Translations under genes and position numbers: made by a program
In this document: piece after piece, positions 57,608 to 64,000 of the stretch
Layout: each line of letters opens with the position of its first letter
Position numbering within the stretch: position 1 is the first letter of the stretch
Notes under the pieces: generated by a model
The model's input: the letters and a program-made list of their open reading frames with translations, nothing else
The model's database searches: none
What the model was told of the DNA's origin: nothing
Source of the DNA: Terriglobia bacterium
Lineage (GTDB): Bacteria; Acidobacteriota; Terriglobia; Terriglobales; Acidobacteriaceae
Reading direction: 5' to 3'
DNA: 64,000 bases
Assembly (NCBI GenBank): GCA_963816025.1
Contig: CAWFJA010000015.1
Location: 17,254-81,253 of the forward strand

Positions 57608-59872
57608 ATGCGAACCAAGACGATTCCCCTGATCTTGCTACTGTGTTCCGGACTGGCAGCTGACAATCTGGAAAAGACCCAGAAAAAGGAACTTGAAGCC
57701 CAGGTAAAGACCATGACGGGAGAGGCGCAAAGGCTTGAACAGGCCGGACAACTGGCCGAGGCGCGCACCAAATATGCCGAATCCCAGGCGCTCATCGAAG
57801 TGAACGATGTCACCGAGGCCATCAAGCGCCTGGATGAACAAATCCACAAGCGGGTGAAGGATGCCTTGAATGATTCGCGCAAACTTTACGAGGCGCACAA
57901 GTTCAAGGAGTCCGCCGCCGTGCTGGACCAGGCCATGAAGCTTGAGGCTTTTCAACCGGTGCTGGCCTACAACCTTGCGCTCTGTTATCAGCAACTCGGG
58001 GACCGCAACCAGGCTCTGGAATATTTGCGCAAAGCCAAAGCCGGTACAGCCGATCCAAAGCAAAAGCAGAAGCTTCTGCAGCTTCAGACTTTCTTTACCA
58101 CTGGAGAGAATGGGCTGTCGGTGAATGACATCGACCGCGACCGCATCCTGCGAGTCAACGCCCTCGCCGACAGCGTCGGACTGGAGGCATCGCTGGAAGA
58201 CCAAGGTGGAGCAGAGGAGTCGTTCTCAGAAGCCGACGAGGCATCTCTGGAATCTTCCCCACAACCAGCGGCGCAGCCGTTCCTGAAGACAGACCGGCCG
58301 GTGGTCACGCACAGCGACACCCGCGCCAGTCACAGATCGAGCTTGTGCAATGCGCTGGTCGAGCTCAAGGGAACTTTAGCCAGCAGTCCGTCCGCGACCT
58401 TCAATCTGGCAAATTGCGCCGAGTCGAATGGACGAACCACGGAGGCGGTCCGGATGCTGGAGGAGTATCTAAAAATGTCGCCCGGCGCGCTCGATGGCGG
58501 AGAATCGCGTGCCCGCATTGCGGACTTGAAGTCGCTGCTGACTTTACCCGGCCAGAACGGAATGGAAGTGCGCCGGCTCTATGCGAGGGCGTATGGCGAC
58601 CTGGCGGAACGTAAATATGACCGTGCGTTGACCGCGTTCAAGAAGGCGAATGACCTCGCCCCTGAATTTGCCCTGACCAAGTGGAAACTGGCGCTGTTCT
58701 ATGAAGCCATGGGAGATGTCGGTCGCGCCCGGGAAAATTTCAGCCGCTACCAGCAATTGGTTTCCGATCAGAGTGCGAAAGACGAAGCTGAACTTCACCT
58801 CAGCACGCTGGATCCCAAGAAGGCGAAGTATGACGAGGAGGTGGACGAAGCTGAGGACATTGTTGCCGATCTCTTCAACCGGGCCCTGAACCTGACTTTC
58901 AATGGGCCCGAAAACCGCAGCGCCTTGCGGGCCAAGCGCGCGCGGGTGAAAAAGAAGGAAGACAAAGGCAAAGCAAAGTATAGAGTCGGTGGCTTTGCCA
59001 TCCCTTTCGCTTATGCGCAACAGCAACTGGCGCGGGCCAGTGAGCATCTGCAGGTCGCTCTCGCTCTGTTTCCCCTGGGCGCCGAGGCCAACCAGTTGAT
59101 GGGACTGGTTTTCATGCAGGCCAACGACGGTCAATCCGCCACCAGGAGTTTTGACGCAGTTGCCAGCCAGGGCCTGCCGGTTGCCTTTTATGCGGAATTA
59201 CGCGACCGCAAGCATGACCAGGCGGTGAAGTGCGAGCTAAGTCACGACCGGGTGCGCCTCATTTATCTCAGCTCGTATGACAAGAAAGGGAATCCGGCGC
59301 CACCCAGCAAGCCGGCCGGCGAAGACGGCCTCGGAGACATGGTGATCGATCCTTCGACTCCGCGGCAGCAGGGTTTCGATGCTCTCGACGTGAACTTGAG
59401 CGAGATCAAGAAAGTAGAGACCGACAAGGGACTGCTGAAGCTGAAGCTTGCCAAGCAGGATGTCTATCTGTCCCCGATTTACTTGCCTTCGTTTACCCCG
59501 ATTGAGGGTCCCCAGGCGCGCCGCTTCGCCAACACTTACACCCGGCTGTTTATTCGCTATCCCGGCCTCGAGGATTCCAAGCTGGGGACTGAAGGCATGA
59601 GCGGCGGCGAGAAGTTCATGATGGGATACAACATCGCCAATGCCAGCGCGGATATCGCCATGTCAGGCTTCGGCGGAATCGGGGCGATCGCGAGCGTGCA
59701 GGACATCATCTCGATTACTCGCACCATTCGGACTGCCATGGTTTCGCTCAGCGTGAGCTTTGCGTCGTGGGAGAAGAGCGTGGAGGACCAGCAGCAACTC
59801 CTTGCTGGTAAGTCATTTAAGGCAATTCCTATCCAGCCCGCGAATCTGGCCTTCGTGCAGGAGGCGAAGTAG
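57608..59872 (+). CDS. large secreted TPR-containing hypothetical protein (754 aa)
   Basis: Signal peptide, coiled/TPR-like N-terminal half (LAYNLALCYQQLGDRNQALEYLRKA) and an unknown C-terminal half. Confidence 0.65.
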   Translation: MRTKTIPLILLLCSGLAADNLEKTQKKELEAQVKTMTGEAQRLEQAGQLAEARTKYAESQALIEVNDVTEAIKRLDEQIHKRVKDALNDSRKLYEAHKFKESAAVLDQAMKLEAFQPVLAYNLALCYQQLGDRNQALEYLRKAKAGTADPKQKQKLLQLQTFFTTGENGLSVNDIDRDRILRVNALADSVGLEASLEDQGGAEESFSEADEASLESSPQPAAQPFLKTDRPVVTHSDTRASHRSSLCNALVELKGTLASSPSATFNLANCAESNGRTTEAVRMLEEYLKMSPGALDGGESRARIADLKSLLTLPGQNGMEVRRLYARAYGDLAERKYDRALTAFKKANDLAPEFALTKWKLALFYEAMGDVGRARENFSRYQQLVSDQSAKDEAELHLSTLDPKKAKYDEEVDEAEDIVADLFNRALNLTFNGPENRSALRAKRARVKKKEDKGKAKYRVGGFAIPFAYAQQQLARASEHLQVALALFPLGAEANQLMGLVFMQANDGQSATRSFDAVASQGLPVAFYAELRDRKHDQAVKCELSHDRVRLIYLSSYDKKGNPAPPSKPAGEDGLGDMVIDPSTPRQQGFDALDVNLSEIKKVETDKGLLKLKLAKQDVYLSPIYLPSFTPIEGPQARRFANTYTRLFIRYPGLEDSKLGTEGMSGGEKFMMGYNIANASADIAMSGFGGIGAIASVQDIISITRTIRTAMVSLSVSFASWEKSVEDQQQLLAGKSFKAIPIQPANLAFVQEAK

Positions 59873-59986
59873 CTGGACGGCTGGAGGGGGGTTAGTCTGA
59901 GGGTGTTTACTCGAAGCGTCTATGGCTGGTGCAACTTTTTTGATGCGCGCCATTCAAAGTTTTCATCGAATGAACCCAGAAGCGGA

Positions 59987-60015
59987 TTGACAGGCTTCAT
60001 GGCTCTATCTACGAT
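59987..60015 (+). promoter_or_regulatory. sigma70-like promoter TTGACA-17 nt-TACGAT
   Basis: Perfect -35 (59987-59992), 17-nt spacer and a 4/6 -10 (60010-60015). Lies 10 nt upstream of ATG 60026. Confidence 0.45.
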
Positions 60016-60025
60016 GAACAGGTTC

Positions 60026-60112
60026 ATGTCAGCTTACAGCCTAATGCGCGGCCAGTGTTGTACTTGTTGTTGTATGGGTGTATCCACTGGCGCCAGGGGG
60101 CCGCTGACCTAA
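60026..60112 (+). CDS. polycysteine leader peptide (28 aa from ATG 60026, or 22 aa from ATG 60044): ..MRGQCCTCCCMGVSTGARGPLT
   Basis: Five TGT codons occur within six codons (60056-60073). The ORF overlaps segments 1 and 2 of an attenuator structure. It sits upstream of sulfur-assimilation genes. Confidence 0.6.
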   Translation: MSAYSLMRGQCCTCCCMGVSTGARGPLT

Positions 60113-60137
60113 GACTCATTTAGCTATCGGCAATCAT

Positions 60138-60176
60138 ACCCACCGCCAGTGCGACTTACTGGCGGTGGGTTTTTTT
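60138..60176 (+). terminator. intrinsic terminator / attenuator hairpin upstream of sulfite reductase
   Basis: Perfect 13-bp stem ACCCACCGCCAGT / ACTGGCGGTGGGT, 7-nt loop, then TTTTTT. Ends 16 nt before ATG 60193. Confidence 0.85.
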
Positions 60177-60192
60177 GTGGCCCAAAAATCCT

Positions 60193-61908
60193 ATGGCAAA
60201 CGCAGTGACAGAAACGGCAGTTACAGAAACGAAAGCCCAGCGGGTGGAGCGGCTGAAGCGGGAGAAAAATCCCTGGGAAGGCCTGGATGACATCCGCAAG
60301 TTCGCCCGTGAAGGCTTCGATTCCATCACCCCGGAATGGCTGGGCACATATTTCCGCTGGTGGGGCGTGTACACCCAGGGCGACGGCGCCGGCGTGGTCG
60401 GCGGGAAAAACGGGGAAGGGAAGGCGCTGCCGTTTTTCATGGTGCGCATCCGCATTCCCAACGGCCTGCTGCATTCTCACCAGCTCCGAACCATCGCGGA
60501 CGTCACCGAGAAATACGCCCGCGGGACCGCCGACCTGACGGTGCGGCAGAATATCCAGCTACACTGGGTGACGATCCAGGACCTGCCCGAGCTGCTCGAT
60601 GGATTGTGGCGCGCCGGCCTCACCACCAAGGGTTCTTGCGGGGACGATACCCGCAACATCACCGGCTGCCCCCTGGCCGGAGTGGATGCCGACGAAATCT
60701 GCGACGCTTCATCGCTGGCGCTCGAAGCCAACAACTTCTTCGTGGGCAACGGCGATTTCTACAATCTGCCGCGCAAGTTCAAAGTCTGCATCACCGGATG
60801 CCGTGTCTGGTGCGCTTATCCCGAAATCAATGACGTCGGCTTGACCGCGGTTCGCCGCGCGGGCGGAGATTCCGAAATTGGTTTTTCTCTGCGAGTGGGC
60901 GGCGGGCTGTCGGCCGATCCTCATCTCGCCGTCCGGCTGAACGCGTTCGTGCAGCGCCAGCAGGTGCTCCCGGTCGTCAAGGGAGTCGCCGAGATTTTCC
61001 GCGAGAGCGAAATGCTGCGCGAGAACCGGGAACGCGCCCGACTCAAGTTTCTGTTCCTCAAACATGGCTGGACCGCCGAAAGCTTTCAGGAAGAGCTGGA
61101 GCGGCGCATCGGTTTTCATCTCGATCCGGCGGTCGAAGAGAAACCGCCCAACGATATTTATCGCGATCACGTAGGCATCCATCCTCAGAAACAGCCTGGC
61201 TATTCATACGTCGGGGCTGCCGTCCTGCGGGGACGTATTTCGTCCCAGCAGATGCGCGCTGCTGCCGACGCGGCGGATCGTTTCGCCTCGGGCGAACTGC
61301 GCACCACCAACATGCAGAACCTGCTGATCGTCAACGTGCCCAATCACAACGCCGGAGCTCTGGCGAACGAACTCGAAGCCAACAAGATGCCGGTGGGCGG
61401 TTCGCCGTTCTGGCGCGGCGTGGTGGCTTGCAGCGGCTCGGAGTTCTGCAAGATCGCGATTACCGAAACCAAGAGTTTTTCCCGCTGGCTGGTCGAAGAA
61501 CTGGAGGACCGGCTGCCGGGCTTCGAGCAGCACCTGAAACTGCACGTCACTGGATGCCCCAACAGCTGCGGCCAGCACTGGATCGCCGACATCGGCATCG
61601 AGGGCAAAAAGATCAAGGTGGATGGCCGCCAGCAGGATGCCTACTACTTCTGCGTGGGCGGCGCCGTCGGACTGCACCAGTCGGTGGCGCGCCCCATCGG
61701 TTACCGCTGCCTGGCCAGCGAAGTGCCGGACGCGATCGAGCGTCTTTTGCGCCGCTACCTGTACGAGAGGTTGCCTGACGAGAACCTGCGGCACTATTTC
61801 GCGCGCCGCACCGACGAAGAGTTGCGCGAGTGTCTCGCCGGAAAATTTCTGGCGGCAGTCGAGCGCGATCCATCGCCGGGAAAGGTCCCGCATGCGGTCG
61901 AAGGCTAA
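60193..61908 (+). CDS. sir: assimilatory sulfite (or nitrite) reductase, ferredoxin-dependent siroheme/[4Fe-4S] type
   Basis: NIR_SIR repeats and cluster/siroheme Cys motifs (TGCPNSCGQHWIADIG, CSGSEFC). The context with siroheme and cysH genes favours sulfite reductase. Confidence 0.85.
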   Translation: MANAVTETAVTETKAQRVERLKREKNPWEGLDDIRKFAREGFDSITPEWLGTYFRWWGVYTQGDGAGVVGGKNGEGKALPFFMVRIRIPNGLLHSHQLRTIADVTEKYARGTADLTVRQNIQLHWVTIQDLPELLDGLWRAGLTTKGSCGDDTRNITGCPLAGVDADEICDASSLALEANNFFVGNGDFYNLPRKFKVCITGCRVWCAYPEINDVGLTAVRRAGGDSEIGFSLRVGGGLSADPHLAVRLNAFVQRQQVLPVVKGVAEIFRESEMLRENRERARLKFLFLKHGWTAESFQEELERRIGFHLDPAVEEKPPNDIYRDHVGIHPQKQPGYSYVGAAVLRGRISSQQMRAAADAADRFASGELRTTNMQNLLIVNVPNHNAGALANELEANKMPVGGSPFWRGVVACSGSEFCKIAITETKSFSRWLVEELEDRLPGFEQHLKLHVTGCPNSCGQHWIADIGIEGKKIKVDGRQQDAYYFCVGGAVGLHQSVARPIGYRCLASEVPDAIERLLRRYLYERLPDENLRHYFARRTDEELRECLAGKFLAAVERDPSPGKVPHAVEG

Positions 61909-61935
61909 GAACAGAAATGTTGGTAAGAACAGGGA

Positions 61936-62131
61936 TGTCATCCTGAGCGCAGGCATGCCATTCGCTGGCGAATGGGATGGCGGAGTCGACGGACCCTCTG
62001 TCAGATTAGCGACCGTTGGAGGAGAGGGATTGTTTCGATGAGATTCTGCGGCAAATGCGTGGAGCGGGTAGAGATCCTTCGACTGCGTGGCTGCTTCGCT
62101 GCGCGAAGCAGCCACTCCGCTCAAGATGACA
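61936..62131 (+). repeat. MITE-like element, family A, copy A3 (196 bp, longer centre)
   Basis: TGTCATCCTGAGCG ... GCTCAAGATGACA. The first hairpin CCATTCGCTGGCGAATGG resembles that of A1. Confidence 0.8.
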
Positions 62132-62171
62132 ATGTTCGAGTTACGCAGGCTCTTCAGTCGTACTGGATGCC

Positions 62172-62795
62172 ATGACGCTGTTTCCGATGTTCATGAAACT
62201 CGAGGGCCGCTCCTGCCTGGTGGTCGGCGCCGGCGCCATCGGCGAGCCCAAGATCGGCAGTCTAATCGCGGCCGGCGCATCGGTCCGGGTGGTCGCCCTT
62301 CGCGCTACGGACGCGGTTGCCAAGTGGGCGAGCGCTGGAACGATTACCTGGGAAGCGCGAGCTTTCAACGCCGCTGATCTCGACGGCGTTTTCCTGGTCA
62401 TTGTCGCCACCAATTCTCGTGACGTGCATGCCATGATTTTCCACCAAGCCCGGCAGCGCAACATTCTGTGCAATGTGGTCGACGACCCGGAATATTGCGA
62501 TTTTTACTATCCCGCGGTGGTGCAGCGCGGAGACTTTCAGGTTGCCATTTCGACCAACGGCCAAAGCCCCGCGCTGGCCCAGAGAATCAGGCGCGAGCTC
62601 GAAATTCAGTTTGGCCCGGAATATGGCGAATGGCTACGGGAGTTGGGACGGATCAGGCAGCAATTATTTGCCAGCAGGATCGACCCGGAAGCTCGGCGTC
62701 GTGTGCTGCATGAACTAGCCAGCCGCACCGCGTTCGAAACGGCGCGGTCCGCGGGATTCAATATCGAGTTAACCAGTCTGGAGAAAATGTCATGA
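62172..62795 (+). CDS. precorrin-2 dehydrogenase / sirohydrochlorin ferrochelatase (CysG N-domain / SirC-Met8 type)
   Basis: LVVGAGAIG Rossmann motif. 207 aa. Its stop overlaps the next start (ATGA). Confidence 0.85.
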   Translation: MTLFPMFMKLEGRSCLVVGAGAIGEPKIGSLIAAGASVRVVALRATDAVAKWASAGTITWEARAFNAADLDGVFLVIVATNSRDVHAMIFHQARQRNILCNVVDDPEYCDFYYPAVVQRGDFQVAISTNGQSPALAQRIRRELEIQFGPEYGEWLRELGRIRQQLFASRIDPEARRRVLHELASRTAFETARSAGFNIELTSLEKMS

Positions 62796-63598
62796 ACGGC
62801 AAGGTGTATCTGGTGGGGGCGGGTCCGGGCGATCCCGAACTGCTCACGCTCAAAGCGCTTAAACTTCTCAAATCGGCCGACGTCGTGCTGCACGACGATC
62901 TCATCGGGCCGGAGATCCTCGCGTTCATTCCATCCTCGACGGAAATCCAGAACGTTGGCAAGCGTTTCGGACGCAAGAAAATCAGCCAGGCCGAGATCAA
63001 CGCCCTTCTGGTACAGAACGCGCTGTTGGGCTTGCAGGTGGTCCGTCTGAAGAGCGGCGACCCGCTGATTTTCGGCCGCGCCGGCGAAGAGATGGAAGCC
63101 CTGCGCCAGGCTGGCATCGAATTCGAAATCGTTCCCGGCGTGACCTCTGCATTCGGCGCAGCCGCCAACGCGGGGATTCCACTCACTCACCGCCAGGTTT
63201 CATCCGCTGTGGTGCTGGTGACTGGCCATCATGCGGCCAGCGACGAATTTGCCGACTGGCCGGCCAGGATACCCACGGACGCGACGGTTGTCGTCTACAT
63301 GCCCGGATACGACTACCACAGCACCGCACAGCAACTTCTGCGGGCCGGCGTGCTGGGAACAACGCCCTGCGCCATCATTTCCCAGGCTACCTTGCCTGGC
63401 GAGCAGACGCACGTGACCACCGTGGACGAGCTGCACGCCTCACCACGGCTGCCCTCGCCCACGCTGCTGGTAGTTGGCGAAGTGGTGCGGATGGCCACGC
63501 CGGCCACGCCACATCAGCAGTTCGCGTGGCCGAATGATGGCGCAGATTTCGCGTCGCATGTCCCGGTCTTGTCAGCTAGTCAGGAGCGTGCGGAGTGA
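62792..63598 (+). CDS. cobA: uroporphyrinogen-III C-methyltransferase
   Basis: VYLVGAGPGDPELLTLKA and VRLKSGDP motifs. 268 aa. Confidence 0.9.
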   Translation: MNGKVYLVGAGPGDPELLTLKALKLLKSADVVLHDDLIGPEILAFIPSSTEIQNVGKRFGRKKISQAEINALLVQNALLGLQVVRLKSGDPLIFGRAGEEMEALRQAGIEFEIVPGVTSAFGAAANAGIPLTHRQVSSAVVLVTGHHAASDEFADWPARIPTDATVVVYMPGYDYHSTAQQLLRAGVLGTTPCAIISQATLPGEQTHVTTVDELHASPRLPSPTLLVVGEVVRMATPATPHQQFAWPNDGADFASHVPVLSASQERAE

Positions 63599-64000
63599 GA
63601 GACCACGCCGAGTTAATTCCCGCTGACGCGGAAAAATGGCGGCCTGAAGAGGTATTGAGCTGGGCCTTTGCCACTCACGGAAAAGATGTGGCGATCGCCT
63701 CCGGCTTCGGAGTTGAGGGCATGGTGCTGCTCGACCTGGCTTCGCGGGTGCGTCCAGATTTTCGAGTCTTCACTTTGGACACGGAATTCCTCTTTCCTGA
63801 AACCTACGATCTGATGGATCGCGTCGAAAAGCGCTATGGCATCAAAGTCGAGAGAGTCTACAGCACGCTCACCCCGGAAGAGCAGGAGCGCGAACATGGC
63901 GGCGCGCTGTGGAGCCGCGATCCCGACAAGTGCTGCGGCCTGCGCAAGGTCGAGCCGCTGCGAACGAAACTGACCGAATTGCGCGCCTGGATCACCGCCA
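63595..64000 (+). CDS. cysH: phosphoadenosine/adenosine 5-phosphosulfate reductase (CysH), 3-prime end beyond window
   Basis: GTG 63595 overlaps the cobA TGA (GTGA). Own translation gives ..IASGFGVEGMVLLD..FTLDTEFLFPETY..DKCCGLRKVEPL. Not in the ORF track because there is no stop in the window. Confidence 0.85.
   Translation, partial: MRDHAELIPADAEKWRPEEVLSWAFATHGKDVAIASGFGVEGMVLLDLASRVRPDFRVFTLDTEFLFPETYDLMDRVEKRYGIKVERVYSTLTPEEQEREHGGALWSRDPDKCCGLRKVEPLRTKLTELRAWITA

Follow-up and report, generated by a model that had tools for sequence, protein, structure and literature searches.

A predicted cysteine-sensing transcription attenuator in front of the sulfite reductase operon of Terriglobales

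The 64,000-nucleotide (nt) stretch of a Terriglobia bacterium genome analyzed here (GenBank assembly GCA_963816025.1, contig CAWFJA010000015.1, positions 17,254 to 81,253 of the forward strand; hereafter the window) carries sir, a gene for a ferredoxin-type sulfite/nitrite reductase (60193–61908, plus strand), which is preceded on the same strand by a leader with the features of a ribosome-mediated transcription attenuator that may sense cysteine. The leader begins with a putative promoter consisting of the −35 hexamer TTGACA (59987–59992), a 17-nt spacer and the −10 hexamer TACGAT (60010–60015), which match the consensus at 10 of 12 positions and from which a transcription start shortly downstream is predicted. 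The promoter is followed by an upstream open reading frame (uORF) of 28 codons, which runs from ATG 60026 to TAA 60110–60112 and encodes the peptide MSAYSLMRGQCCTCCCMGVSTGARGPLT; five of the six codons at 60056–60073 are TGT codons for Cys. Four segments with the potential to pair in alternative ways are distributed over this leader. Segment 1 (GCCAGTG, 60051–60057) is the partner of segment 2 in the minimum-energy fold, and segment 2 (60083–60098), comprising CACTGGCG at 60085–60092, the flanking positions 60083–60084 and a GGG at 60096–60098, is identified by folds and covariation as the 5′ strand of a predicted antiterminator. The apical part of the antiterminator (60103–60131) is formed in the folds by GCTGA (60103–60107) pairing with TCGGC (60127–60131) around a stop-codon hairpin (60109–60113 with 60119–60123). 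Segment 3 (60138–60151, with CGCCAGTG at 60144–60151) is the 5′ arm of an intrinsic terminator and is used by the antiterminator too, whereas segment 4 (60157–60170, with ACTGGCGGTGGGT at 60158–60170) is the 3′ arm of the terminator. The two arms form 13 perfect pairs and one G-U pair, thus 14 pairs of which nine are G-C, and are followed by a T-tract (60171–60176) that ends 16 nt before the sir ATG at 60193. This layout had been proposed in an original prediction made from the sequence, and every coordinate given there proved correct when checked against the window.

The Cys run is the sole six-codon stretch with at least five Cys codons in any of the six frames of the 64-kb window, where 0.014 such runs are expected, and no further copy of the leader was found in the window or in the 7.7-kb genome loci examined. 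A promoter search over positions 59000–61000 returned one match against 0.6 expected, and this lone match is not significant by itself. An extra in-frame ATG (60014–60016), located four codons 5′ of the conserved uORF start, overlaps the −10 hexamer and is unlikely to be transcribed; it is the reason for the extended ORFs of 69 and 32 amino acids that appear at this position in mechanical ORF lists.

The leader is conserved among relatives, for which we took the best 80 Sir loci in species-representative genomes, nearly all of them Terriglobales or Acidobacteriaceae metagenome-assembled genomes, with Sir proteins 70–93% identical to that of the window. A homology search with the Sir protein returned only relatives that are at least 82% identical and did not widen the taxonomic range. 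Of the 80 loci, 78 have a short ORF rich in Cys codons, the end of which lies 65–190 nt upstream of the point where the Sir protein match begins; these orthologous uORFs have 27–32 codons and hold 4–7 Cys codons in their densest 8-codon stretch. A hairpin with a T-tract lies between the uORF and sir in all 78 leaders and its stem, CCCACCGCCAG...CTGGCGGTGGG, is nearly invariant. Promoters of the form TTGACn-17/18-TAnnnT head 70 of the 78 leaders, and among these the −10 box lies 9–11 nt from the uORF ATG in 48 loci and 6–8 nt from it in 13, with the first ATG past the −10 box opening the Cys frame in 68. Within the Cys run, TGTTGTTGT is invariant in the 78-sequence alignment (A1). The Cys-rich uORF and the terminator put forward in the original prediction are therefore kept in 78 of 80 relatives, and the terminator and the antiterminator both show compensatory changes.

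The only two of the 80 Sir loci that lack a Cys uORF (L040:2740–3005 and L042:2740–3005, labels Methylomirabilota and ‘uncultured bacterium’) have a different G+C-rich hairpin and T-run, followed immediately by GGAG, similar to a Shine-Dalgarno sequence, and by the start of sir; this hairpin could be an attenuator of another kind or the terminator of the upstream gene. A typical Terriglobales Cys leader is found in two loci with other labels (L022, Verrucomicrobiia; L059, Eisenbacteria), the Sir proteins of which are 72–73% identical to that of the window; these labels probably result from mis-binning, and possibly reflect horizontal transfer.

Downstream of sir, on the plus strand, lie a gene for a siroheme synthase similar to sirC and the N-terminal part of cysG (62172–62795) and cobA, encoding uroporphyrinogen-III C-methyltransferase (62792–63598), both recognized by domain matches, and cysH (PAPS/APS reductase; 63595–64000), which is truncated by the window end and the GTG start of which appears to overlap the cobA stop. 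These genes are syntenic in 77, 73 and 69 of the 80 loci, respectively, and their assignments, together with that of sir, indicate a role of the operon in sulfite reduction and siroheme synthesis toward cysteine synthesis. The gene upstream of sir, on the other hand, is not syntenic: the TPR gene of the window stands there in just one of the 80 loci, and the upstream neighbor is on the minus strand in 38 and on the plus strand in 31 of 69 loci. The distance from the end of the terminator stem to the start of the Sir protein match has a median of 28 nt (at most 40 nt in 59 of 78 loci), which in most loci is too short to accommodate a promoter of sir's own. Given the lack of upstream synteny, the synteny of sirC, cobA and cysH and the absence of promoter room, we assign the leader to the sir operon; the short gap also means that transcripts reaching sir must cross the terminator. 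This bears on the rival explanation that the short ORF arose by chance and that the hairpin is the ordinary terminator of the TPR gene, downstream of which it does lie on the same strand. The TPR gene, however, has a terminator-like site of its own, a weak hairpin and T-run at 59916–59932, 44 nt past its stop codon and 5′ of the leader promoter, which is probably its terminator, and a leader found in 78 of 80 loci cannot owe its hairpin to a gene that precedes sir in one of them or to neighbors that so often lie on the opposite strand. Together with the low expected number of such Cys runs, the conservation and synteny refute this explanation, to which we attach next to no likelihood.

The RNA of the leader region (60020–60180) has a predicted folding energy of −67.8 kcal/mol, with a z-score of −3.7 relative to dinucleotide shuffles, and its minimum-energy fold pairs 60052–60057 with 60085–60090, that is, segment 1 with segment 2. 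The competing pairing between segments 2 and 3 had been described as a perfect 8-bp helix; these pairs are present, but they are not the full extent of the antiterminator, which is a larger composite of three helices. Its outer helix joins segment 2 with segment 3 (60083–60092 with 60144–60154), its inner helix is a GGG:CCC pairing (60096–60098 with 60139–60141), and the nested hairpin that forms the apical part straddles the stop codon of the uORF. Averaged over the loci, the duplex energies are −17.2 kcal/mol for the 1:2 pairing (mean z −1.6), −17.6 kcal/mol for the 2:3 core and −26.1 kcal/mol for the 3:4 pairing.

Covariation is seen in both of the mutually exclusive structures. In the antiterminator, 88.3% of the alignment cells are paired as against 35–41% when the partners are slid, and seven pairs (51 cells) have changed on both sides; the observed values were reached in none of 500 shuffles on four of five measures and in five of 500 on the fifth, ‘further pair types’. 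The corresponding figures for the terminator are 96.1% as against 28–46%, with seven compensatory pairs, none of 500 shuffles on four of five measures and 51 of 500 on ‘further pair types’. For example, alignment columns 118 and 148, which pair in the third antiterminator helix, hold U-A, U-G and C-G. RNAalifold applied to the 78-sequence alignment recovered only the terminator and two short helices, and the alternative structure was specified by hand.

The spacing of these elements is consistent with a decision made by the position of a ribosome. In the 78 leaders, counted from the run's first Cys codon, segment 1 falls at −14 to +3; the end of the run is separated from segment 2 by a conserved 12 nt, the end of segment 2 from the stop codon by 18 nt in all but two leaders, and the stop codon from segment 3 by about 30 nt. 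For the folds, each leader was cut off at the terminator loop, so that segment 4 was absent, and a footprint of 30 nt centered on the Cys run was reserved for the ribosome; under these conditions 68 of the 78 leaders form the pairing between segments 2 and 3. In the window, the antiterminator is the predicted fold with the ribosomal A site on Cys codons 1–4, that is, on four of the five codons. A hard-constraint fold with the ribosome at the stop codon, in which segments 2 and 3 still closed around the blocked stretch, was rejected as physically meaningless.

The leader peptide itself is variable in its N-terminal half and conserved toward the C-terminus, where it carries the motif (S/T)GAGRLLT; past the stop codon, the block ATCGGCA is conserved as well. 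The conserved frame, length and C-terminal motif might be expected of a functional Cys-rich micropeptide, for example a metal- or sulfur-binding one, with the hairpin merely terminating a small gene. The uORF tail, however, lacks any relaxation at third codon positions (identities of 0.82, 0.84 and 0.80 at the three positions), which places the constraint at the level of the RNA, and the conserved tail nucleotides are exactly those of the antiterminator strand; the presence of antiterminator helices there accounts for the conservation of both the tail and the ATCGGCA block. The freely varying N-terminal half, the want of space for a separate sir promoter past the terminator and the occurrence of Thr-rich peptides on the same chassis before aspartokinase (discussed below) likewise speak against a micropeptide, which we consider very improbable.

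Because the uORF ATG lies about 10 nt past the −10 box, there is no room for a Shine-Dalgarno sequence before it, and with the predicted transcription start the 5′ untranslated region would be about 0–5 nt long and the uORF leaderless or nearly so. The Cys codons of the leaders are also unusual in that 63% of them are TGT (328 of 521) as against 10% (84 of 850) in the adjacent sir ORFs; the long ORFs of the window contain 53 TGT and 158 TGC codons. TGTTGTTGT sits in the apical loop of the 1:2 hairpin, and the TGT bias could raise the sensitivity of stalling through a wobble-read codon or could leave this loop unpaired. A reading of TGTTGTTGT as Leu (TTG) or Val (GTT) codons was rejected, since the conserved start exists only in the Cys frame and an ATG-initiated ORF is rarely present in the other frames across it.

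A scan of metagenome contigs for the terminator stem, using the pattern CCACCGCCAG-N4–10-CTGGCGGTGG, gave at least 124 matches at no fewer than 120 loci and placed the sir leader in a wider context. At least 44 matches, and a few miscalled ones, are Cys-rich leaders that precede Sir, whereas among the matches listed about 11 Cys-rich leaders precede other genes, namely those for PAPS reductase (L157, L161, L168), SirC-like proteins (L143, L163), a rhodanese (L129), an NMT1/SsuA-like binding protein (L165), a CarboxypepD_reg outer-membrane barrel (L182) and Porin_5 proteins (L186, L091). The occurrence of these leaders before several sulfur-related genes suggests, as far as sequence can tell, a multi-operon cysteine regulon under attenuation. 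Leaders rich in Thr, Ile and Ser codons (for example MLSIATKRITSKSSMSITSTTTKTTISASGAWRNS) stand on the same stem before aspartokinase in at least 34 matches and four truncated ones (for example L099:1890–2140, L083, L107, L108, L123, L142, L153 and L159), and at least one Thr-rich leader precedes the gene for aspartate-semialdehyde dehydrogenase (asd; L131). Sixteen of the matches listed have neither leader nor T-tract and are apparently chance matches within coding sequence. The attenuator that the original prediction tied to the sir operon is thus present there but not peculiar to it, being one of a family with a common terminator stem.

Among the matches listed, a simulated stall yields the antiterminator in 40 of 44 Cys leaders before Sir, in 15 of 20 Cys leaders before other genes and in 31 of 34 Thr leaders before aspartokinase. 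The near-leaderless promoter geometry is found in 43 of 44 Cys leaders before Sir, in 17 of 20 before other genes and in none of 40 Thr leaders, and TTGACn is present in 43 of the 44 independent metagenomic sir leaders. Cys runs precede sulfur genes and Thr runs precede aspartokinase and asd on a common stem, and hence the regulatory codons track the pathway, a pattern expected of a ribosome-sensing attenuator but not of a riboswitch, of a site bound by a protein or of a functional peptide. The stem CCCACCGCCAG...CTGGCGGTGGG is far more conserved than pairing demands and is common to different operons, and could for that reason be viewed as the binding site of a protein or small-molecule sensor, acting in the manner of a riboswitch or a protein-dependent terminator, with an incidental uORF. 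We find this hard to credit, given that one stem serving both Cys and Thr leaders cannot specify a ligand while the codon run changes with the pathway, that the leader has no Rfam family match, and that the frozen sequence is sufficiently explained by three-way complementarity, segment 3 pairing with both 2 and 4 and segment 2 being coding and pairing with segment 1 as well.

The Thr/Ile/Ser leaders themselves look, by their sequence, like an undescribed thr-type attenuator family in Acidobacteria. A broader proposal is that Terriglobales possess a single modular, leaderless or near-leaderless attenuator family, in which the chassis CCCACCGCCAG...CTGGCGGTGGG is frozen and only the uORF codon run is exchanged, giving a Cys ‘ribulon’ on the one hand and Thr/Ile runs for aspartokinase and asd on the other; we regard the chances of this proposal as evenly balanced. 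The ribulon so conceived would span sir, cysH, sirC, rhodanese, the sulfonate-type binding protein and the outer-membrane channels, and the family, if real, would be a natural case of attenuator specificity reprogrammed by a codon swap on a duplicated scaffold.

Four independent contigs (L099, L107, L123 and L159) carry both kinds of unit, Thr leader with aspartokinase and Cys leader with sir, in convergent orientation on opposite strands and with about 5.5 kb between them, an arrangement that is absent from the window.

From these observations, we consider it highly likely that the leader of the window is a ribosome-mediated transcription attenuator through which the supply of charged tRNA-Cys governs read-through into sir-sirC-cobA-cysH. 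In silico, it combines the sequence features that characterize this class, viz., a uORF with codons of the pathway's end product, an intrinsic terminator, an antiterminator that shares the 5′ arm of the terminator, and an appropriate placement of the regulatory codons. The trp/his-type logic of the original prediction is supported by the conservation of uORF, terminator and promoter in 78 of 80 relatives, by the covariation in both competing helices, by the footprint geometry and by the match between codons and pathway; what is inferred is where transcription starts, that the uORF is translated, that ribosomes stall on it, that transcripts terminate and that cysteine has an effect. Transcription would begin slightly upstream of ATG 60026, by a few nucleotides, and translation of the 28-codon leader would set in immediately. 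Under a shortage of Cys-tRNA, the ribosome would stall in the TGT run at 60056–60073 and cover segment 1, and would leave segment 2 (60083–60098) free because the latter starts 12 nt past the run. As RNA polymerase advances, segment 2 would pair with the 5′ arm of the terminator (60139–60154), stabilized by the nested hairpin at the stop codon, so that the terminator would be blocked and the operon transcribed. When Cys-tRNA is plentiful, the ribosome would cross segment 2 to the stop codon at 60110, melting the inner helices of the antiterminator, and would sit between segments 2 and 3; after its release segment 2 may pair with segment 1, the 14-bp hairpin (60138–60170) with its T-tract would form, and transcription would end 16 nt before sir.

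Several points weigh against this mechanism or qualify the evidence for it. When the two conformers of the original prediction are compared in the full-length RNA, the OFF conformer (1:2 and 3:4) has −66.7 kcal/mol as against −40.1 kcal/mol with segment 4 excluded, a difference of about 27 kcal/mol in favor of the terminator conformer; anti-termination must therefore be kinetic. The truncated window RNA, conversely, already favors the antiterminator without a ribosome. The 1:2 pairing is a perfect 7-bp helix in the window, as had been claimed, but it is the weakest of the elements, and the default off state ascribed to it has little support, for only about 34 of the 78 leaders are predicted to fold in this way when no ribosome is present. 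For this reason, the main cause of termination in cysteine-replete cells is probably the passage of the ribosome across segment 2 as far as the stop codon, and it is this passage, more than the 1:2 pairing, that would decide the OFF state. ViennaRNA, moreover, takes no account of ribosome sterics, and the stop-codon state is argued rather than computed. As for covariation, the shuffle statistics overstate independence since the sequences are phylogenetically related, and many antiterminator positions are invariant and hence uninformative.

The classical attenuators are those of the enterobacterial trp, his, thr, leu, ilv and pheA operons. The leader shares with them a short uORF containing a run of codons for the end product, mutually exclusive hairpins with a common strand, a decision taken by ribosome position, and an intrinsic terminator immediately upstream of the first structural gene. 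It departs from them in that cysteine appears to be the amino acid sensed, in a uORF that has no Shine-Dalgarno sequence and starts about 0–5 nt from the predicted 5′ end, and in the composite antiterminator, whose three helices take in the stop codon; no similarity is seen at the sequence level. We know of no enterobacterial attenuator that senses cysteine.

The precedent in mycobacteria named by the original prediction is well founded, poly-Cys uORFs being established there as leaderless short ORFs, such as Ms5788A, that make up a ‘Cys ribulon’ (Canestrari et al. 2020, 10.1101/834739). The resemblance lies in a poly-Cys uORF, here predicted to be leaderless or nearly so, with which operons for cysteine and sulfur metabolism begin, in the proposed stalling on Cys codons, and in the several operons per genome that appear to bear such leaders. 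The mycobacterial case that has been dissected is, however, translational, an RNA duplex sequestering the downstream Shine-Dalgarno sequence without a terminator (10.1101/834739), and the leaders described here differ from it in having an intrinsic terminator in every case, in belonging to another phylum and in showing no sequence relationship. One may nevertheless ask whether the Terriglobales hairpin mainly blocks ribosome access to sir and is opened by a ribosome stalled on the uORF, termination being secondary. The sole experimentally dissected poly-Cys leader works in this way (10.1101/834739), the hairpin ends close enough to the sir start in the window and in most of the loci, and both levels of control could act together. 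Yet 78 of 78 leaders bear the mark of an intrinsic terminator, a G+C-rich stem with a T-tract immediately behind it, the window has no Shine-Dalgarno-like sequence in or beside the stem, and in some loci the stem ends 50–130 nt before the Sir protein match, too far for masking. We thus judge primarily translational control to be unlikely. What is conserved in these leaders is a hairpin with a T-tract and not the hallmark of the mycobacterial translational class.

A related arrangement has been predicted in Rhodobacterales, where the uORFC-8-2 motif combines a Cys-codon uORF with an intrinsic terminator upstream of cysS and has been interpreted as a case of ribosome-mediated attenuation (Brewer et al. 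2021, PMC8632094). The order of predicted Cys-codon uORF and intrinsic terminator is the same. By its description, uORFC-8-2 has two tandem Cys codons at about positions 14–15 and a two-stem structure and precedes a tRNA synthetase gene in Alphaproteobacteria, whereas the leaders reported here have 4–7 Cys codons and a different structure and precede the sir biosynthetic operon in another phylum. In actinobacterial cys and cbs operons, candidate Cys leader peptides have been noted that lack conserved terminator hairpins and for which Rho dependence was proposed (Seliverstov et al. 2005, PMC1262725); they resemble the present leaders in the Cys-codon runs of short ORFs upstream of cysteine-synthesis genes and differ in that terminator and antiterminator are here both explicit and co-varying.

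A search of Rfam with positions 59800–60300 at E-values up to 10 gave no meaningful match and no leader family, only spurious snoRNA and miRNA hits, and at the gathering score the related leaders L099, L083 and L165 likewise matched no leader family, only tRNAs or spurious models. The leader is outside the mycobacterial translational class and outside every curated RNA family. A search of the literature on Acidobacteria and Terriglobus for attenuation, leader peptides, cysteine and threonine found no prior description, most subscription journals being outside its coverage. The novelty claimed in the original prediction accordingly holds for Acidobacteria, but the combination of a Cys uORF with a terminator had already been predicted at cysS (PMC8632094). 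The mechanism is a textbook one; its distinctive traits are the amino acid that it appears to sense, the phylum, the predicted near-leaderless start, the bias toward the rare TGT codon and, most of all, the codon-swapped chassis found across a putative cysteine regulon.

We found nothing in the literature on the regulation of assimilatory sulfate reduction in Acidobacteria, which are among the most abundant soil phyla, and the leader offers a concrete cis-regulatory mechanism for sulfur assimilation across the sampled Terriglobales. Cysteine has been largely absent from terminator-based attenuators, the earlier cases being the cysS prediction and the translational system of mycobacteria. The codon-swapped chassis could be informative on the evolution of attenuators, and it could find use in engineering as a compact part that responds to an amino acid. 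Since gene callers miss leader ORFs of 28–32 codons, a covariance model of the leader would also improve the annotation of soil metagenomes.

Within the operon, the 263-nt gap between sir and the sirC-like gene (61909–62171) holds an ORF of 67 amino acids (61972–62175), which we rejected as an operon gene because it matches no Pfam or NCBIfam model and recurs in only two of the 80 loci; it is probably not a conserved gene. The Sir protein itself matches the Pfam domains NIR_SIR and NIR_SIR_ferr as well as NCBIfam models for NirA/sulfite reductase, the latter with scores under the equivalog cut-offs, and its close homologues are named ‘sulfite reductase (ferredoxin)’ by the Joint Genome Institute (JGI).

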